Positions 1 through 25,241 of a stretch of 31,484 bases of DNA are shown piece after piece. The DNA lies in assembly GCA_016748015.1 (NCBI GenBank), contig JAAOMT010000326.1, forward strand, positions 1 through 31,484, given 5' to 3'. The stretch is from Geosiphon pyriformis uo1 (lineage: Eukaryota; Fungi; Glomeromycota). Position 1 is the first letter of the stretch. Each line of letters opens with the position of its first letter. Both the position numbers and the translations under genes were made by a program. The notes beneath the pieces were generated by a model that saw nothing but the letters and a program-made list of their open reading frames with translations, ran no database searches and was not told the DNA's origin.

Positions 1-235
1 CGGCGAATTTCTGTAAATTTCGGCGAATTTTTGAATGTTACAAAGTTCAGGGTATTGTGTAATTTGATCATCTTACTTTCTGTTATACTAATTAGACTAT
101 TTTAATTGAATCATGATATGTGATAATTGATTAAATAATAAATGATAATTTGAAATAATATTAATATATTAATGAATTATAGAAATTATAAGGGTAATTT
201 CATGCTAATTAATAGCTAAAATTCTACTGGTAACA
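1..235 (-). repeat. 3' LTR of Gypsy copy A (partial, U3 end)
   Basis: Near-identical to 7662-7837; ends in CTGGTAACA (TGTTACCAG on the element strand); directly adjacent to the PPT. Confidence 0.92.
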
Positions 236-719
236 TAATCTTCTCCTCAAGACTGAGCTCCATCGAAGTCCAAGCACTATCTGTGATATTGAGATAGTGA
301 TCTAAAATGATTGAAGTAATCTGGTCTGAAAATTGTTGAAATTTCAGTTCTGTGAGTTTGCCAATGTATTGGACTTTCATTGATTGCAGTATTAGATTTT
401 GTAGAACATTTTCACAAGTATTAAACAAATCATAGAGTCTAAAAGCTGCTCTAAGTTTGTAGTGAGTGTTTGTTGGTCCAGCTGCTGTTTTGAATTCATT
501 GTAAATTTGTTTTTGTATAACTTTAAGAGTGAGATTTGTTGGTACAAGTTCTAATTTTCGTTTATAATGTGTTCTTTCAATATAAAAATATCTATATATA
601 AGAGTATGTTTATTATTTTGTTTATTAAAATACTGTAGAAGTTTTTGTTGTATTGTAACATTTGGTAAAATGTTAATAGGAGCAATTAAAAAGTTTTTTT
701 TTAAAGCTTGCTTTAAAAG
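216..719 (-). pseudogene. ORF3 of Gypsy copy A (unknown protein after integrase; true 5' end lost at adapter junction)
   Basis: Open frame that aligns without gaps to the stop-interrupted frame at 15225-15944 in copy B (NEFKTxAGPTN, YKLRAAxRLYDLF, QYIGKLTELKFQQF). The MYKRQ start in the ORF track is adapter-derived. Confidence 0.8.
239..248 (-). other. Polypurine tract (GAGGAGAAGA), copy A
   Basis: Purine run 3 nt from the 3' LTR start; copy B has GAGAAAGAGA at the same position. Confidence 0.8.
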
Positions 720-738
720 CTGTCTCTTATACACATCT
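720..738 (+). other. Tn5 mosaic end / Nextera adapter CTGTCTCTTATACACATCT (assembly artefact)
   Basis: Exact 19/19 match to the Tn5 ME sequence, located where ~420 bp present in copy B (15741-16160) are missing. Confidence 0.96.
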
Positions 739-2007
739 ATTGTTTCTAGAATGATAGTGTTTCAGTCTGTCTCCATGTACAACTTTTGCTAATATTTTGT
801 CATCAAGTCTTAACTTATATGATCCATTGCCTAGAATTTCGTGAATATAAAATGGTCCATTCCATTTGTTTTCAAATTTCCCACTCTATTGTTTTTCAGC
901 CTTAGTTCTGTGTAAGAGAACTTTATTTCCAACTTTAAATTCGTTGGTAATAGATGGTAATTTGTTGTCATGTCTTTCTTTTTGTTGAGCTTGGGAATGT
1001 TCAATATGAGCTGCTGCTATTCTTCTTTTTCCTTCCAGTGTACTAAGAAGCGTATAGGCTCTTCTTTGAAGTGTTTCTTGAAAGTTTTTTTCATTGATTG
1101 GTTGTACTGGGTATGTTTCTACTGTGAAATTAATTGGTAATGTTGCTGTCCTTCCATAAGTAAGATCAAATGGTGTGTGTTTTGTAATATCTTGTTTTAG
1201 TGTTCTGTATGCTAGTAACACTGATGAAATAAAAATATCCCATTCTTGTTCAAAGTCTGTTGAGACTTTGGCTAAAGATTCACACAATGTTCTGTTGAAA
1301 TGTTCTACAAGTCTATTTGTTTGAGGGTGATAAGGTGATGATAGAGGTCTTTTAACATTGAACCATTCACAAATTTCTTGTATCAAGTTGTTCACAAAAT
1401 GTGTTCTTTGATCAGATAAGAGTTCAATTGGGCATCCATGTCTACAAATAATGTCTTCATAGATGAATTTTGCTACTGATTTTGCATCTGCTCTTTGGAT
1501 GGCTCTAGCTTCAGGCCATTTGGTAAGATAATCCACTGCAACTGCAATATAACAATTTCCTTGGGTTGTGATAAGTAATGGTCCAATTAAATCAATTCCA
1601 ACTCTGTCAAAAGGTTGTCCAACTTTGATTGGATTTAAAGGTTCTGTGGGGCGAGTTCCTTCTCTTCTTTGGCAGTTATCACACGATTTTACATATTGTC
1701 AAATGTCTTTTTGCATATGAGGCCAAAAATAATGTTCAAGGGTTCTTTGAATTGTTTCCTCTTTTCCCAAGTGTGCTGAAGACGGATCTGTGTGCATGTT
1801 GTATAAAATTGTTTCTTTTTCATTCTCTTGTACTAATCTGAGTGGCTGGTTTGGTTTTCTGTGATTTTTATAATAAATTTTGTTCTGGTGTATGAAATAT
1901 TGTTTTAATTGGTGTTGTAAGCGGTGTTTTTCACTTGGAGACCAGTTTTCTGGCATGATAAGGGTCTCCAAATAATTTTTAAGATTGCTGTAGTTTCTGA
2001 GATCCAT
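739..2007 (-). pseudogene. Integrase, copy A (HHCC zinc domain, DDE core, GPF/SH3-like tail; internal stops)
   Basis: MHTDPSSAH...YFWP...KSCDNC; GIDLIGP; LLSDQRTHF; NRLVEHFNRTL; KWNGPFYIHEILGNGSYKL. Confidence 0.93.
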
Positions 2008-2064
2008 TTTTGTTTGGTTATTTTGTTGGTAAGTTAGTAAGTTGTGGTGGAATTGTTGTTGGTA

Positions 2065-2768
2065 TTAATCTTGTCTCATTTTTGAGAGGCTATCAACATT
2101 GGTATGTAGTTTTCCTGGTTTGTGGTGTACAATATATTTGTAGTCTGCTAGGAAGTCATTCCATTGAGACTGTTTGGCACTTTGTTCAGTTTTCTTTTTA
2201 TTGAGCCATTTGAGACCAATGTTGTCTGTTATTATGTCAAATTCTTTTCCATTTTTCAGATATTGTTGAAAATGTTTAAAAGCCCAAATAACTGCAGCAG
2301 CTTTTAATTCAGTTGAGCCATATTTGAGTTCTGTTGGCTTGAGTGTTCTACTGACAATAACTTGTTCTTGGCCATTTTCATCCAATTGTGATAAGATGGC
2401 ACCAAATGCTATGTGTGAGGCATCGGTGGCTAATTGGAATCGTTTGTTGAAGTCTGGGTAAGCAAAAACTGGGGCTGTTGTCAATTTTGTTTTGAGAATT
2501 TCAAAAGCTTTTTGTTGTTCTTTAGTCCATTTGTATGGTACGTTTTTGTTGGTAAGATAATTAAGTGGTTTGGCAATTTCTGAGAATCCTTTTATGAATT
2601 TTCAATAGTAAGAAGCTAATCCCACAAATCCTCTTAATTCTGTAGTATTTCTGAGGGTTTGAAAGTTTTTGACAGCATTGATTGTTCCTGGATTTGGTTT
2701 GATTCCATCTTTACTAACTATGTGTTTAAGAAAGATTAAACTTGTTTTTCCAAAGTGACATTTCTCAA
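2065..2768 (-). pseudogene. RT C-terminus/connection and RNase H, copy A
   Basis: EKCHFGKTSLIFLKHIVS, LRGFVGLASYY, LATDAS, YGSTELK, IITDN, KPGKLHTNVDSLS. Confidence 0.93.
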
Positions 2769-3324
2769 NNNNNNNNNNNNNNNNNNNNNNNNNNNNNNNN
2801 NNNNNNNNNNNNNNNNNNNNNNNNNNNNNNNNNNNNNNNNNNNNNNNNNNNNNNNNNNNNNNNNNNNNNNNNNNNNNNNNNNNNNNNNNNNNNNNNNNNN
2901 NNNNNNNNNNNNNNNNNNNNNNNNNNNNNNNNNNNNNNNNNNNNNNNNNNNNNNNNNNNNNNNNNNNNNNNNNNNNNNNNNNNNNNNNNNNNNNNNNNNN
3001 NNNNNNNNNNNNNNNNNNNNNNNNNNNNNNNNNNNNNNNNNNNNNNNNNNNNNNNNNNNNNNNNNNNNNNNNNNNNNNNNNNNNNNNNNNNNNNNNNNNN
3101 NNNNNNNNNNNNNNNNNNNNNNNNNNNNNNNNNNNNNNNNNNNNNNNNNNNNNNNNNNNNNNNNNNNNNNNNNNNNNNNNNNNNNNNNNNNNNNNNNNNN
3201 NNNNNNNNNNNNNNNNNNNNNNNNNNNNNNNNNNNNNNNNNNNNNNNNNNNNNNNNNNNNNNNNNNNNNNNNNNNNNNNNNNNNNNNNNNNNNNNNNNNN
3301 NNNNNNNNNNNNNNNNNNNNNNNN
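2769..3324. other. Scaffold gap (556 N) covering the RT core of copy A
   Basis: N run; the flanks map to about 18188 and 19100 of copy B, so ~0.9 kb is expected here. Confidence 0.95.
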
Positions 3325-3550
3325 AAATTTTTTCATTCCTTTGGGAATATAAATGTTTGGAATTGATATTTCATGCTTCAAACAGATTTGTTCATTGGAT
3401 TCAAAGATTTGTTGTGTAGTGGTGGGTTTTGAGCAAGTGTAAATTTCGTGATGTTCTCCAAAAAGTGAAATGGTAATTGGCTGAGGAAATTGAAGAATCT
3501 GGTGAGATTTATTTTGTGTATTAAGAACTATGTTTACTGGAACTGTAAAT

Positions 3551-3980
3551 CATCCAGTTGAACCAAAATCTTGAGTTCCTCTTTCACTTTTTCCCAATTG
3601 TTCTCTGTTGTTTACTGATTGTAAACTCGAAATGTTGATTAAGGGTAATTAAATTGCTTGAGCAATTTTTTCAGCATGTTCAATTTTGAATGGTTTGTCT
3701 GTCTCATTCTGTAACATGATGGTAATGTCTCCAGTATATCCTGCATCTATAACTCCTCCTCTAATATTGATTCCTTTGCTTGCCAATGATGATCTGGAGG
3801 CAATTTGAACTATTGCTCCTGGTGGAATTTCAAGAACAATTTTTAGATTGATTTTTGTCAAAGACTTTGGTTGGAGAATCAAAGTATCTTTTCCTGGGTA
3901 TCTCAAGTCATATCCAGCATCAATTTTGTGTGCTTTTTCTGGTCTGATTCCTTGGCCATGGTTGTCAAAATATTTAAGTT
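3551..3980 (-). pseudogene. dut: dUTPase domain of pol, copy A
   Basis: All five trimeric dUTPase motifs: DAGYDL, ASRSSLA, GVIDAGYTG, KIAQAI, RGTQDFGSTG. A stop after IAQAI interrupts the frame. Confidence 0.93.
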
Positions 3981-4094
3981 GTAGAGGTAGTTGCTTTTCA
4001 AGAAGATAGATGGGAGTGGTTGGTAGTTCTTCTACTTGTTCAGATACTCCAAATTCGATTTCATTTTTATCATTCTCATCTGGCAGAGGAATGC

Positions 4095-4715
4095 TAAGAG
4101 CATAACATTCTAAACACCATTGGTCATCACAAGACATAACACATTTTTCACATAATTGAATGTTTATTTGCTCTAATCATTGAATTTGAGCTTCTTTGGT
4201 CGGATATGTGTGACTTGCAATTTGGTGGTAGGTTTCTACTTCATCTTCATAATCAAATCCAGCTAATTCCATGATGTACTCAATATATTCAGCTTCTTTT
4301 ATTTGGCAGACATCTTCTTGAATGGCTCCATTGATTAATGCTATTGCTAAGTCAAAAATCATTTCAGCATCATGAGGGTAGTAGTAAAGTTTATTGAAAG
4401 CACTGTTGTATGCTGCATCAAATGGTGTTCCTCTTCTGACTTTTTTCGAAATTGATAGAGCATATTAACAGGTTTGATCACATACTCCTCCTCTTATTGC
4501 TACATCAATCCAATTGCATTCTTCTGGTAGTATTTCTCCACATGTAAGGCAAGGTGTGTTGTCCCATTTTCCACTTCTTTTTGGAGATCTAAATCGTTCT
4601 CTATGGCATGCTTTGCAAAAGTAACAGATATGAGTTTCATATTTCTCTTCTGGAGAAATACATGCTCCCATTGATGAAAGTTTTTTGTTGCAATCTTTGC
4701 ATTTGAGTAGAATAT
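4095..4715 (-). pseudogene. Cys-rich domain of unknown function between protease and dUTPase, copy A
   Basis: CKDC, CYFCKAC, CLTC, CDQTC, C..C..SCDDQWCLEC; in frame with the dUTPase; conserved in copy B. Confidence 0.75.
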
Positions 4716-4919
4716 AGAGTGGTTGTTTCTGTGGTTCTGGTGTAGAATATCTAACTTTCTTCCATCCCCTTGATTCTTCGAAAATCTCTTGTTCAGTTTC
4801 TTCAGCCCAATTGGATGTTGATCCAAGAGCCATATAGGTTTCAGTAAGTGGCATTTCTTTCTCCTCTTCAAATTCAAATACTGGAGCTTTTTTCTGATCG
4901 TTTGTTAAAGGTACCACAG

Positions 4920-5290
4920 GTTGCAGGTACTATGGTATATTGTTCTTGGTATGAGATTTTAAGTTCTTGAGTTTCCCAGTTCAGGTTTGCATTGGCCTTG
5001 AGAAGCCAATCATTTCTGACTAGAGCTTGGTATTGGGGTACATCCATAACAAGAACTTTAACTAGAATGGTGATTCCATCAATTGAAAAAGGGAAATCAT
5101 TAATTTCTCCTACTGGAGTCTTCTTTATACCATCAGCTGTGACAATAACTGTTTGAGCTGGTCTGTCTACATTTCATTTGAGTTGTTGCATCAGCTGGTA
5201 AGTGATAATACTTTCAGCTGATCCACTATCTAAGATTAAGCAAATGGGTTTTCCTTTTACTGTAGCTTCTGTGTACATGGCAGTAATTGC
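4920..5290 (-). pseudogene. Retropepsin-like aspartic protease, copy A
   Basis: ICLILDSGSAESII active-site motif, VTADG flap, ALVRNDWL C-terminal motif. Confidence 0.88.
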
Positions 5291-5854
5291 TTTCTGTTCA
5301 TTGATTGCTGTATTACTAAGCAGAAATGGTGATTCATTTGCCTCAAATTCAAATGGAAATATATCTGACAGATTAGCATTTTAGGCAATTTGAGCTGGGG
5401 GAATGGTGTGGTTGGAAGAGTTTAATCTTGGTGCTGCAATTTCATCTTCAGAAAGTGCAGTTTGTTGAAAATTCGATTCCTCTGGTATTGTAAGATAACT
5501 GGGTTGAGTGTGATAGTGATTGGGTTTTTGCTGGCCCGAATTTCGGGGAACCAACTGGTTATTTAGATTGATTCTATTGTGGTTATTCTGCAATTGATTT
5601 TGGGGTGTGGATTGGTTATGTTGAACCAATCTTCTTGCTAGTACTTGATATTGTTGAGTGGATGGTGTCTGATATGGCTGAATTAGTAAAGGTTGCTAAT
5701 ATTGTTGCTGCATTGATTGTAGAGCTGGTGGATAGTAACTGTTTTGATTTTGTGGTCTTGGTGAATAATAAGTTGGTGGTGGAGATTGGTAATAAGATTG
5801 TTGTGGTGAAGAGTAACGTTGATCACTCCTGTTTTGTTGGTCCCTTTGTAATTT

Positions 5855-7351
5855 CCTACAATCTCGTTTTCAGTGTCCTGGAATTCCACAATAATGACAA
5901 TTTTGAGATTGGTTGTTGGATGATGATCCAAAATTGTTTTGGTTGCATTGTTGTGGGAGTTGATATCTTTGTGGTTGTTGTTGCTGTTGTTGTTGGTTTG
6001 TGAAGTAGCTTTCAACTTTTTTTGTGAGTTGGTCTATCTTCTTTTCAGCTGCTGAGCTGGTTTTTCCAATTGCAAGGTTTACAAGCTTGGTGTGATTTGC
6101 TTCTTCTATTGCCATTTCATAGCTCTTTGCATGTCTAATAGCAGTTGCTAAGTCTGCTGGAGCATGTGGACAGACTTTCTTAATCAGTTTGTCTTTTAAT
6201 CCTGCTATAAACTAATCCAGAATTTGAGCATTAGAATTGTAGTCATTGGTTTCTAATTGTCGAATTCGTCTGAGAAGTTTGTTAAATCTTCCAAGATAGG
6301 TCATAACAGATTCAGATGTTTCTTGTTTGATATTGCGAAAGCGGTTTCTGAGAGTGATAGAGGTATTGTTGTCGGTAAATTGTTGTAGAAAAGCATCTTT
6401 GAATGCTTGCCAGTTTTCAAATGGTTCTTTTAAATTTTTAAATCATTCTTCTGCTGTTCCTTGGAGAAAGTAGGGAATTGCTTTGAGCATTCTTGCTGCA
6501 ATCCAACCATTTGCATCTCCTGCTTTTTGAACTTTGTCAAGCCATTCTTGGGGACTGGTATTATTGTCTTTATCAGTGAATTTTGGGATTTTTGCAATGT
6601 AAGCAGTTGCCATTTCTTCTTCGTTTTCTGAAATTTCTTCTGGTTCTGATTTAGTTTCTTTACTTTCCAAGCTTTCTGAGTGATTACTTTCGTTTTCCTG
6701 TAAGTAATCAATGATATTGGCACTTGTTGATATTGGTTTCTGCTGTTGAATAGGATTTCTAGGTGACTAAAAATCTTCTGGTTTGGAGAAATGGCTAAGC
6801 GGTGAACTTGGTGTTTGTGGTTGAACAAATGAAATTGGAAATAGTGTAATAAAAAGTGGTAATTTGACACTGGTTCCTTGTTCAGGTGTTTGCAAGTGTT
6901 TGGCAGTTGTTTTTTGTAGTGTTAAAGTGTTTGGAGTGGTTCTTGAGTATTGCTTCAATCTTTGTTTGTCTTTATTGCTTGTTTCTGTCTCTGATTCAAA
7001 ATCAAAAGAGTATTTAGACTGTACTGGGTATTTTTCTTCACAATACTTAATAATATTAAAATTAAGTTCTTGGAAGTAGGTAGCAAAAGTTTCACTGTTT
7101 AGGTCTTTTGTTCCCAAGTGTGAATAATGCACTAAATTATTGTAAAAGTTGCTTCTAACTTCTGAAATGTTGTAGTTTCCAAAAAAATAATTGTTGATGT
7201 GGTTTTCAATATATTGGTATACTGATTTCTTTACAATTTCAATTCCGTCTGGAATGTTGAATCTTTGCTTGCAGTGGGTGTAAATTGACTGGTAATACTC
7301 TAGAGTTGCTGTGTCTGGTGTGGTCGCCACTTTGAATTTGTTGTTGCTGTG
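5855..7351 (-). pseudogene. gag: Gag (capsid + CCHC knuckle) with long N-terminal extension, copy A
   Basis: PQEWLDKVQKAGDANGW...LQGTAEE; IKQETSESVMTY (major homology-like region); CHYCGIPGH*KRDC. The 6767-7330 ORF is in the same frame as 6443-6670 and 5870-6115. Confidence 0.88.
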
Positions 7352-7355
7352 TTAT

Positions 7356-7373
7356 TTCCATAGAAGAGCACCA
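7356..7373 (-). other. Primer binding site, copy A (TGGTGCTCTTCTATGGAA)
   Basis: Starts with TGG 2 nt after the LTR-terminal CA; matches the copy B PBS apart from transitions. Confidence 0.8.
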
Positions 7374-7375
7374 AA

Positions 7376-7837
7376 TGTTACCAGAGGTTTTTGGTCTCTT
7401 TTTTTAAATGTTGGTAATGTTGATTTGCTGTAAATTCACGTTTTTAGGAAGTAGTTGAACCTCCAATAACTGAATTTATCTTCAAATTATCTCCTATAAT
7501 TTGAACTGCTGGGCTTATAAATGGAATAGCCAATTTCTTGCCAGTTACTTTATGTAGTTATGTTGTAGTAAATGTCAACTCTTTCCCAGGAATTGCTCGT
7601 CTGGAAGCTCACTAAAAATGTGTAGTTACTTTGCTGTAAAANNNNNNNNNNNNNNNNNNNNTAATTTGATCATCTTACTTTCTGTTATACTAATTAGATT
7701 ATTTTAATTGAATTGTGATATGTGATAATTGATTAAATAATAAATGATAATTTGAAATGATATTAATATACTAATGAATTATAGAAATTATAAGGGTAAT
7801 TTCATGCTAATTAATAGCTAAAATTCTACTGGTAATA
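7376..7837 (-). repeat. 5' LTR of copy A (middle collapsed in 20-N gap 7642-7661)
   Basis: TGTTACCAG...CTGGTAATA termini; left part homologous to 23130-23400, right part to 60-235. Confidence 0.92.
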
Positions 7838-11752: not shown

Positions 11753-12475
11753 ATGAACCTAAAAACTGCTTCTGGTAGCAATATGTTAAAGAAAAAAACA
11801 CCAAAAAAAGCCCTTTATAATCCTGTTAGTGGTATTTTTTTTCAGAAAAAAAAGGTTTCAGTTGGCAACATTAAGTATTCAGACAATAAAAAGCAAATTT
11901 TTTTGACCAAACCTACTGTTAATGGTAGAATATTCTTGAATATGGATAGTGAGTTCAGTGAAAATAATGTTTCTGGTGCTGCAATAAATTCTGGTGGGAG
12001 TTTTTCTTTTGGCTCAGTGGCAACAACTCTCAAAGCTAAGAAATTTTATTCTGGTCTGGTTGGTGGCTCTTCTCTCAGTACAATTAACTTTAAAATAAAT
12101 GATAATAAGGTCTTTTTTCCCCTTCTCTTAATTTTTCTTTTGATAAAAAATAGGTTAATTCAAAAATAGTTAAGATTTAGGTGGAAATGGCTGTAAAAAA
12201 ATCCTTTGCATTAGACATAAACCTTTTAGCTGTGGAAAAAAAATCAATAACAGCAAAAATACAAATTATTAGAAAAATTTTTCAACTGTTAATGGTTTTG
12301 GGGGGACTACTACCTCCTTAAAATTTAAAAAAATCATCAGATCTATCTTTATGTCAAAAATAAACATAGAAAAAATCATTTTATTAGCCAAAGAAAAAGG
12401 GATCATCATAAACACTAATCTCAAAAAACAAAGAATGTGTTCAGATTGGACCATAGTAATTAAAGAGATTCCCAT
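11753..12475 (+). pseudogene. LINE ORF1 5' fragment (duplicate copy)
   Basis: MNLKTASGSN...IVIKEIP, near-identical to 13564-14286. Confidence 0.8.
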
Positions 12476-13169
12476 TGTTACTGGAGGTTTTTGGTCTCTT
12501 TTCTGTAATATTGTTGATATTTGTTTGCTGTGAATTCACGTTTTCTGGATGTAGTTGAACCTCCAGTAACTGAATTTTAACTTCAAATTATTTTCTATAA
12601 TTTGAACTTGCTGGGCTTATAAGTGGAATGGCCAATTCCATGCCAGTTACTTTATGTAGTTACATTGTAGTAAACGTTAACTCTTTCCCAGAAATTGCTC
12701 ATCTAAAAGTTCACTAAAAATATGTGTAGTTACTTTGCTGTAAAAGTCAACTCTTCTACAGGAATCTCATCTGTAGGCTACCTTAATGATTGTAATAAGA
12801 AAAGAAAAAGAAAAATAAAAAAAATATAAAAGAAATAGAATTTTATCAAGAGAAACATTTTCGATCCAGGCCTGGAGTCACTAACTGTTTATTGAAATTG
12901 GTAGCTAATCAATTTCAAAATGTTAGTTGAGTTTTGAGGATTTTCCAAGTGTAATACTTAAAGAATTTGGTTTTTTGAATTATTTGATATTTATTTTTTT
13001 TGTGTATGTAGGAATGGTTCTAAGTGATAAATCTAAAGTAAGATATATTTTCTCGAAAAGAGAAGCTCTTCTTTTATACAACTTGTTGTAACACTATTCT
13101 ATGAACTTGAACTTTGCTATTTTCTACAATTTCACTAAACTAAAGATACATTTTGGCAAACTACAAGTT
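12476..13169 (-). repeat. Partial third LTR of the Gypsy B family
   Basis: Begins TGTTACTGG; aligns to 14287-14969 and 23130-23812; truncated by the gap. Confidence 0.92.
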
Positions 13170-13563
13170 NNNNNNNNNNNNNNNNNNNNAGTTAATAGTA
13201 TTTAAAAAAATAAAAAATAATTTAAAAAGCTTTAATATTATTTTAATTGTTATTTTTTTATATTATTTAGTTATTTTTAAGTATTTTTTCTTTGTTAATA
13301 TTATAAAATTTAAAAATATCAGATTTTAAATAATTTAATCTGAAAAGTTTGAAATTTTTCTAATATTAAAATTAAGTTTTTTTTAAGTATTTTTTAATTT
13401 TTTTTAATTTTTTAATTTAAATTTAATTAAAATAATAGAAAAACTTCTTTCTTTCCTACTTCCCAAATCTTACAAAGAGCATTTTTGTAAAAAAAAAGTT
13501 TTTGTTTTTTGTTTTTTCTGTTATATTACTCTTAATATTTCTCAAGTTAGTAATATTTTTGTA

Positions 13564-14286
13564 ATGAACCTAAAAACTGCTTCTGGTAGCAATATGTTAA
13601 AGAAAAAAACACCAAAAAAAGCCCTTTATAATCCTGTTGGTGGTACTTTTTTTCAGAAAAAAAAGGTTTCAGTTGGCAACATTAAGTATTCAGACAATAA
13701 AAAGCAAATTTTCTTAACCAAATCTACTGTTAATGGTAGAATATTCTTGAATATGAATAGTGAGTTCAGTGAAAATAATGTTTCTGGTGCTGCAATAAAT
13801 TCTGGTGGGAGTTTTTCTCTTGGTTCAGTAACAACAACTCTCAAAGCTAAGAAATTTTATTCTGGTTTGGTTGGTGGCTCTTCTCTCAGTACAATTAACT
13901 TTAAAATAGATGATGATAAGGTCCTCTTTCCCCTTCTCTTAATTTTTCTTTTGATAAAAAATAGGTTAATTCAAAAATAGTTAAGATTCAGGTGGAAATG
14001 GCTGTAAAAAAATCTTTTGCATTAGACATAAACCTTTTAGCTGTGAAAGAAAAATCAATAACAGCAAAAATACAAATTATTAGAAAAATTTTTCAACTGT
14101 TAATAGTTTTGGGGGGACTACTACCTTCTTAAAATTTGAAGAAATCATCAGATCTATCTTTATGTCAAAAATAAGCATGGAAAAAATCATTTTATTAGCC
14201 AAAGAAAAAGGAATCATCATAAACACTAATCTCAAAAAACAAAGAATATGTTCAGATTGGGCCATAGTAATTAAAGAGATTCCCAT
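13564..14286 (+). pseudogene. LINE ORF1, 5' part
   Basis: Lys/Ser-rich N-terminus; frame continues at 24104 after the Gypsy insertion. Confidence 0.8.
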
Positions 14287-15256
14287 TGTTACCGGAGGTT
14301 TTTGGTCTCTTTTCTGTAATGTTGTTGATACTTGTTTGCTGTGAATTCACATTTTCTGGATGTGGTTGAACCTCCAGTAACTGAATTTTAATTTCAAATT
14401 ATCTTCTATAATTTGAACTTGCTGAACTTATAAGTAGAATAACTAATTCCATGCCAGTTACTTTATGTAGTTACATTGTAGTAAATGTTAACTCTTTCCC
14501 AGGAATTGCTCATCTGGAAGCTCACTAAAAATATGTATAGTTACTTTGCTGTGAAAGTCAACTCTTTTACAGGAATCTCATCTGTAGGCTACCTTAATGA
14601 TTGTAATAAGAAAATAAAAATAAAAATAAAAAAAATAGAATTTTATCAAGAGAAACATTTTTGATCCAAGCCTGGAGTCACTAACAGTTTACTGAAATTA
14701 GTAGCTAATCAATTTCAAAACGTTAGTTGAGTTTTGGGGATTTTCCAAGTATAATACTTAAAGAATTTGGTTTTTCGAATTATTTGATATTTATTTCTTT
14801 TGTGTATGTAGGAATAGTTCTAAGTGATAAATCTAAAGTAAGATACATTTTCTCGAAGAAAGAAGCTCTTCTTTTATACAACTTGTCGTAACACTATTCT
14901 ATGAACTTAAACTTTGCTATTTTCTACAATTTTGCTGAACTAAAAATACATTTTGGCGAATTACAAGTTATTTCTGCAAACTATTAGATATTTTGGTGAA
15001 CTATCAATTATTTCGGCAAATTTCTACAAATTTTGGCAAACTTTTGAATGTTACATAGTTCAGGGTATTGCATGATTTAATCATCGCAATTAGGTTACAT
15101 TTGTATTGTGTACAAATTGAGTTATTAATCAAATGATAATTTTGGACATTTTGTTAATGTAATAAGTGATAATTTGAAACGATAATATGCTAATTAATAA
15201 TAGGATTTATAAAATAATTTCATGCTAAATAATATCTTTAATTTCATTTGATAACA
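14287..15256 (-). repeat. 3' LTR of copy B (970 bp)
   Basis: TGTTACCGG...TTGATAACA; same length as and colinear with 23130-24099. Confidence 0.96.
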
Positions 15257-15944
15257 TAATCTCTTTCTCAAGACTGAGTTCCGTCGAAATCCAAGTACTG
15301 TCTGTAATTTCCAGATAGTAATCCAAAATTATTGAAGAAATTTGGTCTAAAAATTGTTGAAATTTCAGTTCTGTGAGCTTTCCAATGTATTGAATCTTCA
15401 AAGGTCATAATATTGGGTTTTGTAGGACATTTTTACAGGTGTAGAATAGGTCATAAAGTCTAAGAGCAGCTCTGAGCTTATAGCGACTGTTTGTTGGTCC
15501 AGCTATTGTCTTGAATTCATTGTGAAGTTGTTTCTGAATAGCTTCTTTTGTGAGGTTTGCTGTTGTAAGTTCCAGTTTCCATTCGTAGAATGTTTTTCCA
15601 ATGTGGAAATATCTATAGATTAGAGGATATTCAGTGTTTTCCTCATTGAGACACAGTTGAAGTCTTTGTTAAATTGTAGCATTTGGTGGAATACTAATCA
15701 GAGTGAGCATTAAGTTTTCTCTTAAAGCAAGCTATAAAAGTTCTGGCAGGTGAATTCCAGAATAACTTCTTGTATTCTTTTTATATGGGTGATATTTTCG
15801 TGAATTTGGGGCTAAATTTGTAACTACTTCTGTTTAGGTATAATTAATGTGGTTTTCAGTAACAGTAATGAATAATTCGGGTATTGTTTTTAAAACTAAC
15901 ATTAGTTTTTGGGATAATTGTTGAATGTTTTGAGAAATAGTCAT
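15225..15944 (-). pseudogene. ORF3 of copy B (240 codons, 4 in-frame stops, no frameshift; absent from ORF track)
   Basis: ATG at 15944 to TAG at 15225 is 720 nt. Manual translation MTISQNIQQL...IYRYFHIGKTF...YKLRAALRLYDLF...QYIGKLTELKFQQF...IKDII*; homologous to 216-719. Confidence 0.8.
15260..15269 (-). other. Polypurine tract (GAGAAAGAGA), copy B
   Basis: Purine run 3 nt from the 3' LTR. Confidence 0.8.
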
Positions 15945-16043
15945 TCTAAGAGATTTGAAAAAAAATTATTTTTGGTGTATGGGTTTTTATGTTATTTTTG
16001 TTTTGATTGTTTCTAAATTATAAGGGATAACTAGTAAATTAAA

Positions 16044-17429
16044 TTAAGTGTTCAGGTTGGAAGGTTGTTCAATGACAACTATTGGTTCTAAGTTTCGGGA
16101 AATATTTTCGAGATTGACTAAAGGGGAATGTGTACCAATTTGTGCAATTAATGGTTCAGGATTGTTTCTTGAATGATAGTATTTCAAACAATCTCCATGT
16201 GCAACTTTTGCTAAGATTTTGTCATCAAGTCTTAGCTTGTATGATCCGTTGCCTAGGACTTCATGGATAAAGAATGGTCCATCCCATTTGTTTTCAAATT
16301 TTTCACTCCATTGTTTTTCTGCTTTAGTTTTGTGTAAGAGAACTTTGTTTCTGATTTTAAATTCATTGGTGACTAGAGGCAAATTGTTGTCATGCCGTTC
16401 TTTTTATTGAGTTTGGGAGTGTTTAATATGGGTGGCTGCTATTTGTCGTTTTCCTTCCAATGTGCTAAGCAGAGTGTAGGCTCTTCACTAAAGCGTTTCT
16501 TGGAAATTGTTTTCATTAATTGGTTGTGCTGGGTATGTTTCCACTGTGAAACTAATTGGTAATGTTGCTGTTCTTCCGTAAGTTAAATCAAATGGTGTGT
16601 GTTTTGTGGTATCTTGTTTTAGTGTTCTATATGCTAGCAACACTGATGAAATAAAGATATCCCAATCTTGCTCAAAATCAATTGAGACTTTGGCTAATGA
16701 CTTACACACTATTCTGTTAAAACGTTCCACAAGTCCATTTGTTTGTGGATGGTAGGGTGAAGACAGAGGTCTTTTGACATTGAATTGTTTGCAAATTTCT
16801 TGTATCAGATTGTTCACAAAGTGTGTCCCCTGATCAGATAAAAGTTCAATTGGACATTCATGTCTATAAATGATGTTTTCATAGATGAAATTTGCTACTG
16901 ATTTTGCATCTGCTCGTTGAATGGCTTTGGCTTCGGGCCATTTAGTAAGATAGTCTATTGCTACTGCAATATAATGGTTTCCTTGAGTGGTAATAGATAG
17001 TGGTCTGACTAAATCAATACCAACTCAGTCAAAGGGTTGTCCAACTTTGATTGAATTTAATGGTTCAGTAGGGCATGTTCCTTCTCTTTTTTGACAACTA
17101 TTACAAGATTTGACATATTTGTAAATGTCTTTTCTCATTTAAGGCCAAAAGTAGTATTCTAGTGTTCTTTGGGTGGTGCTGTCTTTTCTGAAGTGGGCTG
17201 ATGAAGGATCTGAGTGCATGTTGTATAATATAGTCTCTTTTTCCTGTTCTTGTATTAATCTGAGTGGTTTGTCTAAGTTTTTGAAATTTCGATGATAAAT
17301 AATGTTGTTATGTAGGAAATATTGTTTGGCTTGTTGTTGTAGTCGATGTTTTTCATCTGGAGACCAATCTGTTGGAATTGTTAATGTTTCCAAATATTGT
17401 TTGAAATTGTTGTAGTTTTCCAAATTTAT
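16044..17429 (-). pseudogene. Integrase, copy B
   Basis: MHSDPSSAH..YFWP..KSCNSC; GIDLVRP; LLSDQGTHF; NGLVERFNR; KWDGPFFIHEVLGNGSYKL. All fragments share one frame; no chromodomain. Confidence 0.95.
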
Positions 17430-17480
17430 TGTTTGTTGGCTCTTTCGGTTGGTTAAGTTAAGTGTTGGTTTTTGTGTTTT

Positions 17481-18740
17481 CTAATCTTGTCTCATTCTGG
17501 AGAGACAGTCAACATTGGTGTGGAGTTTTCCTGGTTTGTGATGTACTATGTATCAATAGTTTGCTAGAAATTCTGTCCATCAGGTTTGTTTTGCATTCAG
17601 CTGAGTATTTTTGTTCTGAAGCCATTTGAGTCCAATATTATCAGTGATAATATCGAATTCTTTAGGCCTGAGATAAAGGTTGAAGTGGTGTAGGGCCCAA
17701 ATTACGGCTGCTGTTACTAGTTCTGTGGCAGGATAGTTTTTCTCAGCTGGTTTTAATGTTCTGCTAGCATAAGCAATTACTCGTTCATTTCCATTGTCAT
17801 CTAGTTGTGATAAGATGACACCAAAGACAGTATACGAAGCATCTGTAGCTAGTCGAAATTGGTTGCTGAAATCCAGGTAGGCGAAGATTGGAGCTGTTGT
17901 CAGTTTTTCCTTGAAAATTTTAAAAGCTTTTTGGTGTTTGGTAGTCCATTTGTATTCAACGTTTTTGGTGGTGAGCTGGTTAAGGGGTTTTGCAATTTCC
18001 GAGAATCCTTTGATAAACTTCCAATAGTAGGATGCTAATCTTATGAATTCTCTTAATTCTGTAGTATTTTGAGGAGTTTTGAAGTTTTTGACAACGCTGA
18101 TTTTTCCAGGGTCTGGTTTGATTCCATCTCTATTAATGATATGCCCAAGGAAGGCCAAGCTTGTTTTTTCAAAGTAGCATTTTTCGATGTTGAGTTTTAG
18201 TCCTGCTTTTTGTAATCATTGAAAAACTTCTCACAGGTGTTTTAAGTGTAATTCAAATGATGGAGAATAAACATCAGTATCATCAAGATAAATGACTACT
18301 GATTTCCAAAGAAGTCCTTGGTACACAACATCCATTAATCTCTGAAACGTTGCTGGTGCATTGCATAATCCGAAAGGTATTACATTAAACTCGTAATTTC
18401 CGCCTTGGGTGGTGAATGCTGTTTTGGGGTGATCTTTGAGATCCATAGCAACTTGCCAGTAACCGCTTTCTAAATCTAGTGTTAAAAAGTATTTGGATTT
18501 TTCAAGGGCATCCAACATGTCATCAATCTGGAGAAGGGGGTAGGCATCTCCAATTGTAACACTGTTGAGTTGTCGATAGTCAACACAAAATCGAATCTTC
18601 CCATTTTTTTTTTTAACTAGCACTACAAGTGAAGCCCAAGAACTCATGGAGGGTTGGATGAGCCCATTGTTAAGCATTTGTTGTACTTCTTCTTGGATGA
18701 ATTGGTGGCTTTCTAGAGCAACTCGATATGCTTGTTGTTT
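17481..18740 (-). pseudogene. pol: Reverse transcriptase + RNase H, copy B
   Basis: VLVKKKNGKIRFCVDYRQLN, TLDLESGYWQV, PFGLCNAPATFQR, YLDD, FLGHII, LATDAS, NYPATEL, IITDN. Confidence 0.97.
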
Positions 18741-19321
18741 TCTTGGTTTGGCATCTCCTGTGTAAATTTGGTGTTAGACCAAATCGGTTCTTTCCAAGTC
18801 ATTGTTGTTTTCAACAAAGATATCGGCAAATTTTACAATTAGCTCTTTGAGCTGGGTCTGTTGTTGTGGTTTAAGTTGTCCCATATTGATTCGAGATAGT
18901 TTTTCCATGACAACATGATAGTTTTTGGAGCTGGGGTTTGGGTTGATTTTTGGTAGTAAATGTCCAATAATTTTAGAGAAATTGGGGACTGTTTGGGGTA
19001 ATTCTTGTTGGAATATATTACTGTGAATAACTCCAATTTCTAAATTATTTAATAAAATTATAGGGTAATTATTGGAGTTGTAAAAAGTAACTTGGACTTT
19101 CTTTGTTCCTTCTGGAATATAAATGTTTGGAATTGAAATATTATGTTCCAAGCAGACTTGTTCATTGGACTCAAAAATTTGTTGTGTGGTTGTTGGCTTT
19201 GGGCAGGTGTAGATTTCCAGATGTTCTCCAAAGGGTGAGATGGTAATTGGTTGTGGAAGTCTTAGAATCTGGTGAGATTCTTTCTGTGTGTTAAGAGCTA
19301 TATTAACTGGAACTGTGAATC

Positions 19322-19750
19322 GTTCAGTTGAACCAAAACCTTGAGTTCCTCTATTGCTTTTTCCTAATTGTTCTCTTTGATTGACTAGTTGCAAACCCAA
19401 AATGTTGATTAAGGGTAGGTAAATAGCTTGGGCAATTTTTTCAGCATGTTTGATCTTAAATGGTTTGTCAGTTTCGTTTTGAAGCATCACTGTAATGTTT
19501 CCAGTATATCCAGCATTAATTATTCCTCCTCTGACATTGATTCCTTTGCTTGCCAGAGAGGACTGGGAGGTAATTTGAACCATTGCTTCTGGTGGGATTT
19601 CGAATGCAATTTTTAAGTTGATTTTTGTGAGGGATTTGGGTTTGAGAACAAGAGTATCTTTGCCTAGATATTTTAGGTCATATCTAGTATCAATTTCGTG
19701 TGCTTTTTCAGGTTTTATTCCTTGTCCATTGTTGTTGAAGTATTTAAGTT
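19322..19750 (-). pseudogene. dut: dUTPase domain of pol, copy B
   Basis: DTRYDL, TSQSSLA, GIINAGYTG, KIAQAI, RGTQGFGST; same frame as RT. Confidence 0.93.
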
Positions 19751-19864
19751 GTAAGACAGGCTGATTTTCAATAAGGTAGATAGGTATTGTTTTACTTTCT
19801 TCCATTATTTCAGGTTCTCCAAATTCAATTTCGTTCTCATCATTTTTGCTGGGCAAGGAGATAC

Positions 19865-20495
19865 TAAGAGTGTAGCATTTAGAACATTACTGTTCATCGC
19901 AAGGCATAATGCATTCTTCACATAGCCTAATGTTCATTTGCTTTAATTGTTGAATTTGAGCTTCTTGGGTTGGGTAGGTGTGACTTGCAATTTGGTGGTA
20001 GACTTCTATTTCATCTTCGTAATTGAATCCAGCTAATTCCATGGTGTATTCAATGTATTCTGCTTCCTTTATTTGACAAACATCTTTTTTAGTAGCTCCA
20101 TTAATTAATGCCATTGCTAGATCGAAAATCATTTTAGCATCATGGGGGTAGTGATAAAATTTGTTGAGAGCACTGTTGTATACTGCATTAAAGGGTGTTC
20201 TTTTTTTTACTTTTTCTGAAATTGATAAAGCATATTGGCAAGTCTGATTGCAGACTTCGCCTCTCATGGCTACATCAATCCAATTGCATTCTTCTGGTAG
20301 CATATTTCCACAAGTCAAACAAGAGGTGTTATCCTATTTTCTATTTTTTTTTATTAGATGGCCCCATTGTTCTCTGTGGCAAGCCTTGCAGTAATAACAA
20401 GTATGATTCTCATATTCTTCTTCAAGTGAAATGCAGGCTCCCATTGACAATAGTTTCTTGTGGCAGTCCTTACATTTAAGGGGAATATAGGGGCA
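19865..20495 (-). pseudogene. Cys-rich domain of unknown function, copy B
   Basis: IPLKCKDCHKK, TCYYCKACH, CLTCG, CNQTC, LCEECIMPCDEQ*CLKC. Confidence 0.75.
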
Positions 20496-20699
20496 TTGTT
20501 TCCTTGGTTCGGGTTTTGGGTAAGGGATATTCCATCCAAAGGTTTCGGGTTTAGTGTGTGGGTAAAATGTTCTTGTTCTGTTTTATTGGCCCAGTTGGAC
20601 GTTGATCCCAGAGCCATGAATGTTTCAATGAGAGGTTTTTTCTCTTCCGGTTCGAATTCAAAAGCCGGGGCTTTTTCAGAGCATTTGTTGAATATACCA

Positions 20700-21080
20700 C
20701 AAATGGCAGGTACCCGGGTGTGTTGTCCTTGGTAGGAGATTGTTAACTCTTGTGTTTCCCAATTCAGATTAGCATTGGCTTTTTGAAGCCAATCATTTCT
20801 GATGAGAGCTTGGTATTGGGGTGTGTCCATTACAAGAACTTTGACTGGAATGGTGATTCCATCAAGTGTAAACAAAAAATTGTCAATTTCTCCTACTGGG
20901 GTCTTTTTCATGCCATCAGTAGTAATGATTACTGTTTGAGCTGGTCAGTCGACATTTCTTTTCAACTGTTGCATTAACTGGTAGATGATAATGCTTCTGG
21001 TGGATTCACTGTCTAGGATCAAGCGAATTGTCTTTCCTTTGACTTCAGCTTTAGTGTACATGGCCGTAATTGCTTTTTGT
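20700..21080 (-). pseudogene. Aspartic protease, copy B
   Basis: IRLILDSEST (DSG mutated), ITTDG, ALIRNDWL. Confidence 0.88.
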
Positions 21081-21619
21081 TCATTGGCAGCTGCATTGCT
21101 AAGCAGAAATGGTGACTTATTTGCTTTGAACTCAAAAGGGAATATATCTGAAAGGTTAGTGTTTTTAGCGATTCTGGCTGGTGGAATTGTGGTGAGAGTA
21201 TAGAAAGGGTTTTGTTGTTGTTGTGCTGCAGCTCTACCTTCTGAGAGTGCAGTATGGTGAAAATCTTGTTCTTCCAGTATTGTTAAATAACTGGGTTGAG
21301 TGTGGTAGTAGTTGGGTTTTGGTTGAGTGGTATTTCGGAGAACCAATTGGTTGTTTGAACTGATTCTATTGTTGTTTACTTGGTATCAGTTTTGTGGTGT
21401 GAATTGATTTTGTGTAATCAGTCTTCGAGCAGATATTTGATAATGTTGTGTGGGTGGTTGTTGGTATTGCTGTTGGATTGGCTATGGGGCTGGCTGATAA
21501 TAGTTATTTTGGTATTGGGGTCTTGGTAGATAGTAAGCTGGTGGTGGTGGTTAATAATAAGATTGCTGTGGTAGAGAGTAATGTTGATTACTCCTATTTT
21601 GTTGGTCTCATTGTAGCTT

Positions 21620-23105
21620 TCTGCAATCTTTTTTCCAGTGACCAGAGATTCCACAGTAATGGCAATTCTGAGGCTGGTTATTGGAAAGTGGTGCAAAGTT
21701 ATTTTGATTTCATCTTTGGGGTTGCTGTTGTTGTTGATTGGTAAAATAGTTTTCAACCTTCTTTGTGAGTTGGTCAATTTTTTCCTCGGCTGCTGAGCTG
21801 GTTTCTCCAATTGCCAAATTTACAAGTTTTGTGCGGTTGGCCTCTTCCATGGCCATTTCATATCTTTTCGCATGCTGTATGACAGAGTTTAAATCTTCTG
21901 GCACATGTGGGCGAACCTTTTTAATTAGTTTATTTTTTAGACCAGCAATAAATTGATCCAAGATTTGAGCATCGAAATAATAATCGTTTGTTTTAAGTTG
22001 GTGAATTTGTCTGAAAAGTTTGTTGAATTTCCCAATATAAGTCATAACAGATTCAGAGGGTTCTTGTTTGATATTTCGAAAATGATTGCGAAGGGTGATG
22101 GAAGTATTATTGTTAGTGAACTGTTCAAAGAAAGCTGCTTTGAAAGCGTTCCAATCATTAAATGGGGCGGCCAAGTTTTCAAACCATTCTCCTGCTGTTC
22201 CTTTGAGAAAGTAGGGAATTGTTCTTAACATTCTGGCAGCATTCCATTCATTTGCATCTCCTGCTTTAGTAACTTGGTCGAGCCATTCTTGGGGACTGGT
22301 CTCAATGTCTTCTCCATTAAATTCAGGGATTTTTGCGATGTATGTTGTCATTTTGTTTTCTTTGTTTTCACTGTCTATTGATTCTTCTTCAGATATTTCT
22401 GGTTTGTTTTCTTCATTTGCTGCTGTCTTAGAGTGTTTACTTTGATTTTCAGCTAGAAAGTCAAGGAGATTGGAACTAGTTTGAAGAGGTTTCTTGTTGT
22501 CTGATGGGACTTCTGAGTGATGTAAAATCTTCTGGTCTTGCAAATCAATTTAAGGGTAAATTAGGCGTTTGTGCTTGTGTAAGTGAAACTGGAAAAGGTG
22601 TGATAGTAAGTGGAAGTTTTGAACTGGTTCCTTGTTCAGGTGTTTGTAAATAGTTGGCAGTTGTTTTTGGTAGTGTTGAAGTATTTGGGATGGTTCTTGA
22701 ATATTGTTTCAATTTGTTTTTGCCTTTGTTGCTTGTTTCTGTTTCCGATTCAAAATCAATAGTGTATTAAAACTGCACTGAATATGTCTCTTCACAGTAT
22801 TTGATAATGTTAAAATTAAGTTCGTAAAAGTAAGTGGCAAGTGTTTTGCTGTTAAGGTCTTCAGTTCCCAACTGTGAATAGTGTGCTAAATTATTGTAAA
22901 GATTGCTTCTAACTTCTGAGATATTGTAATTTCCAAAAAGATAATTGTTGATGCGGTTTTCAATGTATTGGTATACTGATTTCTTGACAACTTCAATTCC
23001 GTCTGGAATGTTGAATCTTTGTTTGCAGTGGGTGTAAATTGATTGGTAATACTCTAAAGTTGTTGCATCTGGTGTGGTCGCCACTTTGAATTTGTTGTTG
23101 CTGTG
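21620..23105 (-). pseudogene. gag: Gag with N-terminal extension and CCHC knuckle, copy B
   Basis: IPEFNGED..PQEWLDQV..LKGTAGEWF..IKQEPSESVMTY; CHYCGISGHWKKDC at ~21622-21663; one frameshift near 22490. Confidence 0.9.
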
Positions 23106-23109
23106 TTAT

Positions 23110-23127
23110 TTCTGTGGGAGAGCACCA
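23110..23127 (-). other. Primer binding site, copy B (TGGTGCTCTCCCACAGAA)
   Basis: 18-nt TGG-initiated tract 2 nt after the 5' LTR; complementary to a tRNA ending ...GGAGAGCACCA. Confidence 0.85.
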
Positions 23128-23713
23128 AATGTTACCAGAGGTTTTTGGTCTCTTTTCTGTAATGTTGTTGATACTTGTTTGCTGTGAATTCACGTTTTCT
23201 GGATGTGATTGAACCTCCAGTAACTGAATTTTAACTTCAAATTATCTTCTATAATTTGAACTTGCTGGACTTATAAGTGAAATGGCCAATTCCATGCCAG
23301 TTACTTTATGTAGTTACGTTGTAGTAAACATTAACTCTTTCCCAGGAATTGCTCGTCTGGAAGCTCACTAAAAATATGTGTAGTTACTTTGCTGTGAAAG
23401 TCAACTCTTCTACAGAAATCTCATCTGTAGGCTACCTTAATGATTGTAATAAGAAAATAAAAATAAAAATAAAAGAAATAGAATTTTATCAAGAGAAACA
23501 TTTTCGATCCAGGCCTGGAGTCACTAACCGTTTATTGAAATTGGTAGCTAATCAATTTCAAAACGTTAGTTGAGTTTTGGGAATTTTCCAAGTGTAATAC
23601 TTAAAGAATTTGGTTTTTCGAATTATTTGATATTTATTTCTTTTGTGTATATAGGAATAGTTCTAAGTAATAAATCTAAAGTAAGATACATTTTCTCGAA
23701 AAGAAAAGCTCTT

Positions 23714-23721
23714 CTTTTATA
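23714..23721 (-). promoter_or_regulatory. Putative LTR TATA box (TATAAAAG); AATAAA ~75 nt downstream at 23633-23638
   Basis: Retained in all three B-family LTR copies, in the element's sense orientation, downstream of the U3 repeat array. Confidence 0.55.
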
Positions 23722-23770
23722 CAACTTGTCATAACACTATTCTATGAACTTAAACTTTGCTATTTTCTAC

Positions 23771-23884
23771 AATTTTGCTGAACTAAAGATACATTTCGGT
23801 AAATTACAAATTATTTCTGCAAACTATTAGATATTTTGATGAACTATCAATTATTTCAGCGAATTTCTACAAATTTTGGCAAAC
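23771..23884. repeat. Six-unit, ~20-bp-period array in LTR U3 (core ATTTCGGCGAAY)
   Basis: Cores start near 23772, 23793, 23813, 23833, 23853 and 23873; also at ~14929-15041 and 1-30. Confidence 0.75.
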
Positions 23885-24103
23885 TTTTGAATGTTACATA
23901 GTTCGGGGTATTGCATGATTTGATCATTGCAATTAGGTTACATTTGTGTTGTGTACAAATTGGATTATTAATCAAATGATAATTTCGAACATTTTGCTAA
24001 TGTAATAAGTGATAATTTGAAATGATAATATGCTAATTAATGATAGGATTTATAAGATAATTTCATGCTAAATAATATCTCTAATTTCATCTGGTAACAC
24101 CAT

Positions 24104-25241
24104 GAACACACCTAAAGAAAAAATTGTTACTGCAATAGCTAAGTTTGATAAAATTAAGTTAATCAAAATTTAATTAATTGGTATGTAATAAAAGACTATG
24201 GTAAAATTTACTAAATTTGATCAGCTGAACAGTTGGTTTCTAAATAGTCATTCTTAATTGAAAAAAATTCAGTGCATGTAGCCATGGTTATAAATAATTA
24301 TAATACTTAGATATCTAAGAATCAATTTAAGACACTACTATTATTTTGCCAGTGAGAACAACTGTTTATGATTTGGGTGTTCTTTTGAAAAGAGGAAATG
24401 AAAAAACATGTATCATAAATTGATTATTGAATTCTGGCAATAGGATTTACTGTGCTGTAGTTGGTTTTAAGTCTAAAAATAGAATAGAATCTGTATATTG
24501 CATTAAGCTGATATTTGGTGAAGTTAAACTCTCTTGGGCAAGATTAGATCTGGTTTGGTGTAATAAGTGTGAGAAGTTAAGTCATTCTGCATTAGAGTGT
24601 AATACAGCAAGTATGGCTGCCCCTTTGGCTGCAAAGTCATTTAAGAAGTCTATTTCTGAGGTGAATTGTCTTTATTTGACCAAGTTGTACACTAAAAAGA
24701 GTGTTTCTATTTTTCATCCTGCTGTCTTTGGTGGCAAATCTTAGGCCCAAGTGGTTTCCTTTGCTGTCTATTTGGGAAATAGTTCCCATTTGGATTTTGG
24801 TTCTGGTTTTTTGAATGTCAAGAAACATTTGTTGGTTGTTCAGAATATTCTTCTGTAGTTGACTACTTAGCTTCTTTGGAATAATCTTTGGAACTCTTGG
24901 TTAACCAAGTATCAAGTATAGTGTGCAAGTTAAATAATATAAAGCTGGTGCTCTTGATATCTGTCTCCAATTTTATTGTCTCAATTATTCTTATTCCAAC
25001 ACTATTAGTACCAGATCTGGATATGATTTTGGATGATATGTTGATAATTCTTATTTTTTCGCTTTCAGTTGTTAACAGTGTCACTTCTGGTCTTGGTTCA
25101 AGTAGTTCAAAGATTCTTACCACTAAGGTGGATGGTCTGAAATAAAAAATGGTTGTTTTGGAAGTGTTAGTCAACTCAGTTTTGAAGAAGTTAGATCATC
25201 TGTGCTCTAATTTGGGTTCTTCAGCTCTCCTTTTATCTTAA
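24104..25241 (+). pseudogene. LINE ORF1, 3' part (RRM-like regions and CCHC knuckle)
   Basis: NTPKEKIVTAIAKFDKIKLIK; RIYCAVVGF; CNKCEKLSHSALEC (CX2CX4HX4C) at 24559-24600; ends ...LLS*. Confidence 0.8.

Follow-up and report, generated by a model that had tools for sequence, protein, structure and literature searches.

Whether the integrase of a long terminal repeat (LTR) retrotransposon can be a gene of its own, or only looks detached when decayed copies are compared, is the question raised by a stretch of 31,484 nt from the fungus Geosiphon pyriformis uo1 (contig JAAOMT010000326.1, assembly GCA_016748015.1; hereafter, the window). Positions 14287-24099, read on the minus strand, hold a full-length decayed Ty3/Gypsy element (copy B), and a second copy (copy A) lies at the beginning of the window. 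The three-gene layout, i.e., a first open reading frame (ORF1) closed by a fixed stop, a detached integrase, and a third frame (ORF3), is real; we hold this with near certainty. The features at issue are as follows:

17481..17483, minus strand: fixed stop closing ORF1, TAG in B and TAA in A (A/B alignment; contigs of run X1)
17430..17480, minus strand: A/C-rich spacer, 51 nt (57 nt in A) (A/B comparison)
16044..17429, minus strand: stand-alone integrase with YPYY, H2C2, DDE, and GPY/F (Pfam, motifs)
15225..15944, minus strand: ORF3, of a soluble helical family, extending past the polypurine-tract-like stretch into the 3' LTR (profile, model of a relative)
1..7835, minus strand: copy A, about 77% identical to B and belonging to a sister subfamily, with N gaps and an adapter-mediated join (self-BLAST)

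Frameshifts and stop codons occur throughout both copies, and this would favor the idea that the split arose by decay or is a chance result of having only two dead copies to compare. Stops are found at 30 aligned A/B positions; the two copies have a stop in common at only one of them, that following RNase H (TAA in A, TAG in B). The other 29 are private to one copy and the frameshifts fall at differing sites (near 4893 in A; near 20555 and 22495-22555 in B); therefore, they represent decay, as the preliminary description of this DNA had proposed for the frameshifts. Both B frameshifts are crossed in one frame by the Geosiphon gene models P0056 and P0158, which may contain predicted introns. 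In run X1, which is perhaps the window's own sample and then represents other copies of the same genome rather than an independent source, 614 contigs on 17405-17590 showed no alternative letter at 12% or more at 17481-17483; a decay stop 70 nt from the junction stop (17553-17555) had alternative letters at 43-50%. Fifteen X1 contigs depart from B within the stop and then carry an A-like spacer.

Probing with the integrase of copy A retrieved 919 proteins (E ≤1e-20, 234-748 aa), the best 120 of which are 376-453 aa long and include several from Rhizophagus irregularis and R. clarus, with Entrophospora among the cluster members. It counts against the detached layout that a search limited to 234-748 aa cannot reveal fused forms; the layout was therefore tested on DNA, using the best 80 of 568 metagenomic stretches matched by catalytic-core patterns. 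Twenty-five loci without the RNase H end on the contig were set aside, and in all the 55 counted ones, having the RNase H end upstream, the integrase is unfused. An in-frame integrase ATG lies within 45 nt of the expected place in 52 of these 55 (exactly there in 48). In several relatives the whole ORF1 frame is open (1229-1849 codons), and some relatives have terminal repeats and the LTR-end/primer-site pattern of the window element; these are therefore intact LTR elements. Those with an open ORF1 of 1457-1849 codons still terminate before the integrase. The X1 contigs, the 55 unfused relatives, and the single shared stop out of 30 thus refute the split-by-decay reading, to which we give next to no chance.

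In the window, the integrase frame starting at 17429 comprises 461 codons and is followed by ORF3 (239 codons plus stop, 15944-15225), so that the order of stop, integrase frame, and ORF3 given in the preliminary description stands, with the stop shared by A and B. The start position reads ATG in A and ATA in B, and in both copies the integrase is in the frame of the reverse transcriptase (RT). Among the 120 best homologues, 100 start with a methionine at the column of copy A's methionine, and 17 begin downstream. Translated as protein, the spacer shows 29% identity between A and B over 17 codons. In a quick, midpoint-rooted RNase H tree of 74 rows, both window copies join the sequences L001 and P0127 with a support of 97, and RNase H comes to its end at the same residue in L001, P0127, and the window; the tree gives no direction of evolution, because of its quick construction, its midpoint rooting, and the assignment by eye of the "continues" labels. 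Judged from the sequences compared, the detached integrase and ORF3 are lineage-wide in Glomeromycotina-type elements; the viral contigs searched yielded only three weak matches.

How, then, is the integrase made? We lean towards termination-reinitiation on one RNA. According to this model, a single LTR-to-LTR RNA would be translated into the ORF1 polyprotein without gag-pol recoding, and some ribosomes, on terminating, would restart at the AUG of the integrase, either after crossing a short spacer poor in AUGs or where stop and start overlap. Not being cut from Pol, the free integrase would reach the cDNA by attaching to RNA, the capsid, or RT; ORF3 would act as a soluble accessory protein, probably nucleic-acid binding and not an envelope, and the dUTPase, gained in the window's family, would exclude uracil from the cDNA. 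In 52 junctions the integrase lies in frame 0, 1, and 2 relative to ORF1 in 9, 22, and 21 cases, respectively; readthrough or a fixed frameshift is therefore excluded as the rule of the lineage. Stop and start overlap in 13 of the 52 (TAATG and ATGA among them), which points to termination-reinitiation; in 28 they are 1-120 nt apart, and in 11 the distance is longer. Short spacers contain five ATGs versus 31.8 in shuffles (0 of 1000 shuffles as low), and a purine occupies position -3 in 62 of 71 integrase starts, so that scanning to a real start codon fits. YAG splice acceptors are not enriched before the integrase AUG (15/28 vs. 18.4). Reinitiation past long ORFs is known from the fungal viruses CHV1 and HvV190S and from the retrotransposon SART1 (PMC10275272; this and the other papers are cited here from excerpts).

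The same layout might also be served by shorter mRNAs, spliced from the 5' LTR or begun at an internal promoter, specific to integrase and ORF3, or by internal ribosome entry at a structured RNA in some subclades, and we regard this as a lesser but real possibility. Spacers of up to about 500 nt are common, a branch-like word, TACTAAC, occurs in the copy A spacer, spliced messages are typical for the ORF3s of LTR elements (PMC5408684), and a subclade of 16 loci has a covarying RNA structure 0-30 nt ahead of the integrase AUG, with two-sided changes in 7 of 11 pairs. The window spacers, however, lack this structured RNA, the missing YAG excess speaks against splicing, and the 13 overlaps need neither acceptor nor promoter. 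A leaky stop, read through into an ordinary RT-RNase H-integrase fusion, would suit both window copies and their closest relative L001, where the integrase is in the RT frame, as well as copy B with its missing ATG; yet the integrase is out of frame in 43 of 52 relatives, which largely refutes readthrough for the lineage, the identity and 3' context of the junction stop vary among relatives, the spacer is not kept as protein, and the start methionine is kept in 100 of 120 homologues. This alternative is therefore highly improbable.

Several points weigh against termination-reinitiation and, more generally, against the picture drawn here. Ribosomes that have translated a very long ORF usually restart with low efficiency, and in 11 of the 52 junctions the spacer is longer than 120 nt; the scarcity of AUGs would be expected under every scanning route, a separate short mRNA among them. 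In copy B the integrase start reads ATA, and X1 is silent on this position in other B-type copies, the site being 22 nt from the edge of the aligned stretch; moreover, both window spacers are in frame and stop-free, as readthrough would also predict. As for the third gene, ORF3 went undetected by the profile search in 14 of the 33 loci having at least 800 nt downstream, and its structural model was built for a relative, P0287 (143 aa), whereas the window protein has 239 aa.

The structured RNA of the subclade mentioned above is about 40 nt long, lies just 5' of the integrase ATG, and has 11 predicted pairs (loci L018, L020, L029, L036, L038, L039, L047, L054, L059, L063, L069, L071, L073, L076, L078, and L080). 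It is a candidate translation or processing signal; Rfam gave no match on nine relative loci, five of which carry the structure.

Concerning ORF3, an iterated profile retrieved one family 3' of the integrase in 30 loci, among them 19 of the 33 whose downstream DNA is 800 nt or longer. A profile from which it had been left out gives the window protein E 7e-6, and this protein shares 29% identity with the ORF3 of L001; a stop at 15405-15407 is decay. In copy A, an exact 19-nt adapter at 720-738, which we take to be of the transposase (Nextera) type, joins the integrase end to mid-ORF3; the absence of the 5' part of ORF3 from this copy is thus a technical artefact. At 50% identity, the family comprises 606 representatives; of ten looked up, three are named, belonging to Rhizophagus, Gigaspora, and Glomus. 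None of 150 members has a membrane-like segment above a hydropathy of 1.6 (1.2 in the window); by this measure, ORF3 does not qualify as an envelope protein. The median isoelectric point is 8.8, with 87 of the 150 above 8.5, and P0287 yields a confident all-helical model (pLDDT 95.8). The window ORF3 has no match in Pfam, nor did 133 members point to a consistent family; no match to solved sequences below E 0.14 was found, and a Foldseek search with the model retrieved nothing from the PDB or viral libraries, the best hit of a wide search having Z 5.0; such an absence of matches does not prove a new fold. A likeness to closterovirus coat proteins (atlas 0.94, 152 shared features) was unsupported by the fold searches and was discarded. 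Our best guess is that ORF3 may be a nucleic-acid-binding accessory protein.

Upstream of the stop, ORF1 occupies 23105-17484 (5.6 kb), which corresponds to the ancestral frame of about that length reconstructed in the preliminary description; most of its domains are recognized by Pfam, and the Geosiphon models P0056 and P0158 read across both B shifts. The modules follow one another in this order, up to the stop:

22352..23105, minus strand: N-terminal extension, about 245 codons, frameshifted in B near 22495-22555 (dN/dS; P0158)
21800..22351, minus strand: capsid (Retrotrans_gag), at whose start the frame has its first ATG (PF03732, E 3e-14)
21617..21667, minus strand: CCHC zinc knuckle (PF00098, E 0.001, under the curated cut-off; motif by eye)
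21100..21600, minus strand: Q/N/P/Y-rich linker (dN/dS 0.16)
20675..21091, minus strand: aspartic protease (PF13650, PF08284)
19833..20522, minus strand: Cys-rich domain, with CxxC clusters around a predicted helical core (dN/dS 0.12)
19326..19709, minus strand: trimeric-type dUTPase (PF00692, E 3.5e-18)
18903..19307, minus strand: domain of about 135 aa between dUTPase and RT (dN/dS 0.11 over 69 codons)
17484..18902, minus strand: RT and RNase H (PF00078, PF17917, PF17919)

The ratio of nonsynonymous to synonymous substitution rates (dN/dS) between A and B is 0.11-0.24 in every module compared (N-terminal extension, capsid, linker, protease, Cys-rich domain, dUTPase, the domain of about 135 aa, integrase, and ORF3; an out-of-frame row for RNase H is disregarded), and 0.48-1.07 in the shifted-frame controls for the N-terminal extension and ORF3; these values indicate that the extra modules are real coding sequence under purifying selection. 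For the N-terminal extension the values are 0.19-0.24 versus 0.69-0.72 in shifted frames, and the P0158 gene model continues from it into the capsid. This extension contains no ATG in either A (7351-6614) or B (23105-22352), and it is immediately preceded by a stop in the same frame, past the putative primer site; this suggests a non-AUG start, for which the GTG near 23084, whose context is strong, would be a candidate, or a spliced leader. Pfam gave no match on it (first 187 codons of B, all of A), nor does it match the conserved pre-capsid domain that most relatives carry.

That pre-capsid domain has a CxxCxP..F..FW.W-like motif (L004, L010, L014, L018, L026, L030, L038, L052, L063, L069, and L080) and no Pfam match where scanned. 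Other variants were observed among the relatives. In L021, L023, L024, L026, L030, L031, L044, L051, and L052 protease and RT are separated by a further stop in the reading frame, giving the arrangement gag-protease/RT-RNase H/integrase; a primer site was not evident in the loci of this subclade that were inspected. In L018, L037, L038, L047, L063, L066, L071, L073, L078, and L080, ORF1 runs 220-400 codons past RNase H with an acidic tail, which is Cys/His-rich where read and without Pfam match in the five scanned.

The dUTPase-containing frame retrieved 289 proteins, the 120 listed all being Geosiphon pyriformis gene models (45-91% identity), a homology that by itself makes this fungus the very likely host. 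The dUTPase and the following domain of about 135 aa are present in all 120, by construction, as this region was the query; the Cys-rich domain is present in 96. The family would thus have at least as many copies as the proteins matched (289); LTR elements make up 41.2% of the G. pyriformis genome (PMC11952901). The dUTPase of copy A matched 73 solved sequences (best E 5e-12), and its five trimeric motifs are recognizable, the exact words occurring in 70, 29, 46, 95, and 31 of 111 decayed Geosiphon copies. The idea that the domain of about 135 aa is a second dUTPase was abandoned, as no profile match to dUTPase was obtained with the shallow alignments available. The structure model of the Cys-rich/dUTPase region is mostly of low confidence (pLDDT 38.7). 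Protease and RT are 591 codons apart in the window versus 38-279 in the 25 relatives having both domains, none of which has a dUTPase match; the Cys-rich domain has no match in 80 relatives, nor a profile match to the Cys-rich inserts of relatives. Among the 25 relatives compared, therefore, the Cys-rich/dUTPase cargo is seen only in the window's family.

The remaining features of the element are its ends:

23130..24099, minus strand: 5' LTR, 970 bp, TGTTA...TAACA (self-BLAST; ends by eye)
23110..23127, minus strand: primer-binding-site-like stretch, starting TGGTG 2 nt past the LTR (sequence; candidate)
15260..15269, minus strand: polypurine-tract-like stretch (sequence)
14287..15256, minus strand: 3' LTR (self-BLAST)
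14283..14286, minus strand, with a second copy at 24100-24103: target-site duplication ATGG, 4 bp (sequence)

The two LTRs (24099-23130 and 15256-14287) share 94.4% identity over 970 aligned bases, with 53 transitions and one transversion; the pattern of TAACA, 2-3 nt, and TGGTG is also found in relatives. The direct LTRs with TG...CA ends, the target-site duplication, and the Pfam order of capsid, protease, RT, and RNase H, with integrase last, are those of Ty3/Gypsy elements. Overall, Pfam recognized capsid, CCHC, protease, dUTPase, RT, RNase H, the H2C2 and core domains of the integrase, and a weak SH3-like tail. The usual location of the integrase inside the pol ORF is lacking, a trait that does not define the superfamily. 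This is, therefore, an unusual Ty3/Gypsy lineage and not a new kind of system.

Canonical members (Metaviridae; Ty3, DGLT-A) share with it the LTRs, a primer-binding site (putative in the window), the capsid, the CCHC knuckle, and the protease-RT-RNase H-integrase order, and DGLT-A likewise has a single gag-pol frame (PMC5911963); unlike them, the window lineage has the integrase as a separate gene with its own AUG and a conserved non-env ORF3. No chromodomain typical of chromoviruses was detected by Pfam at E 0.1 in copy B, whose integrase ends about 45 aa past the SH3-like part, and ORF3 lacks the transmembrane segment of env-bearing (errantivirus-like) elements. The YPYY integrase motif has been reported in Ginger1, Athila/Tat, Cer1, DGLT-A1, and Gypsy-1-I_RO (Bao et al. 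2010, PMC2836005), and the window integrase shows the succession YPYY-H2C2-DDE-GPY/F by which that source defines the Ginger1 integrase; the Y/F-P-Y/F-Y/F motif precedes H2C2 in 102, 104, 114, and 114 of 120 homologues. By description, the YPYY Gypsy group and Ginger1 also share with the window the TGTNR ends, the 4-bp duplication, and a unit of about 400 aa. Ginger1 differs in that its terminal repeats are inverted, RT is absent, the targets are CCGG/CCGT, and protease domains lie at the C-terminus (PMC2836005), whereas the window element has direct LTRs and an RT; the excerpt does not mention a separate integrase ORF for either group.

A dUTPase between protease and RT has been described in PosPlaTy3-5 and in Phanerochaete and Tuber elements (PMC2864245) and, together with an ORF3, in the bdelloid Juno, Vesta, and TelKA (PMC5408684). 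In those elements, unlike the window, the integrase is described as part of pol, and the excerpts mention no Cys-rich domain ahead of the dUTPase; in contrast to the window's ORF3, those of the rotifer elements are of env-like, GDSL, DEDDy, or membrane type. In CHV1, HvV190S, and SART1, as in the relatives, the downstream gene starts at or shortly past the upstream stop (PMC10275272); the former two are RNA viruses and SART1 is a non-LTR element, and reinitiation is experimental there and inferred here. A literature search, with Repbase, GyDB, REXdb, the genome paper, and supplements outside its scope, found no LTR lineage described in which the integrase has an ORF to itself; none is reported in the excerpts of PMC3248453, PMC5751038, PMC6839031, PMC10508981, PMC13468544, PMC2774666, PMC5911963, PMC11673190, 10.64898/2026.05.21.726589, and 10.1101/2022.12.01.518749. 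Additional file 1 of PMC2864245 (family table), also outside this scope, may bear on novelty. Hence, the suggestion of the preliminary description that a single family carries an undescribed package holds in part: the modules are real coding sequence and no description was found, but the detached integrase and ORF3 are lineage-wide and the dUTPase position was already published (PMC2864245, PMC5408684).

Other sequences in the window were also inspected. At 11378-13169 and 13190-14969 a tandem near-duplicate (94.9%, with a 20-N gap between) repeats part of the B 3' LTR with the same flank and represents either a haplotype/assembly duplication or an old local duplication. On the plus strand, a heavily decayed region at about 24400-29900 shows CCHC, endonuclease-, RT-, and RNase H-like motifs across frames (no Pfam match at E 0.001), presumably from a non-LTR (LINE-like) element; at about 8700-9900 a broken coding remnant, also on the plus strand and without Pfam match, has motifs that we take to recall a Crinkler-type restriction-endonuclease-like domain.

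A bolder and, in our opinion, unlikely interpretation would be that of a tricistronic lineage in which the integrase is loaded in trans, ORF3 is a new-fold factor driving reinitiation or loading, and the YPYY integrase, with the TGTNR ends and the 4-bp duplication, represents a living intermediate between Gypsy integrases and Ginger1 transposases, possibly keeping the pre-fusion state. The free integrase bears on the open question of the Gypsy-Ginger1 origin. It could also mislead annotation, since the rve domain served as a Ginger marker in one fungal survey (PMC5751038, excerpt). The ORF3 family adds about 600 clusters and a confident model of a relative with no known match.

Textbook LTR elements carry integrase into the particle by fusion to Pol; here, a large and apparently still intact lineage of mycorrhizal fungi has its integrase unfused to Pol. 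Two questions thus become testable: by what route is a gene translated that lies downstream of a very long ORF, and how does an integrase unfused to Pol find its cDNA? Annotations of intact stand-alone integrases exist for Rhizophagus irregularis (among them GBC53574.1 and GET66802.1), a tractable host for the study of such an enzyme.

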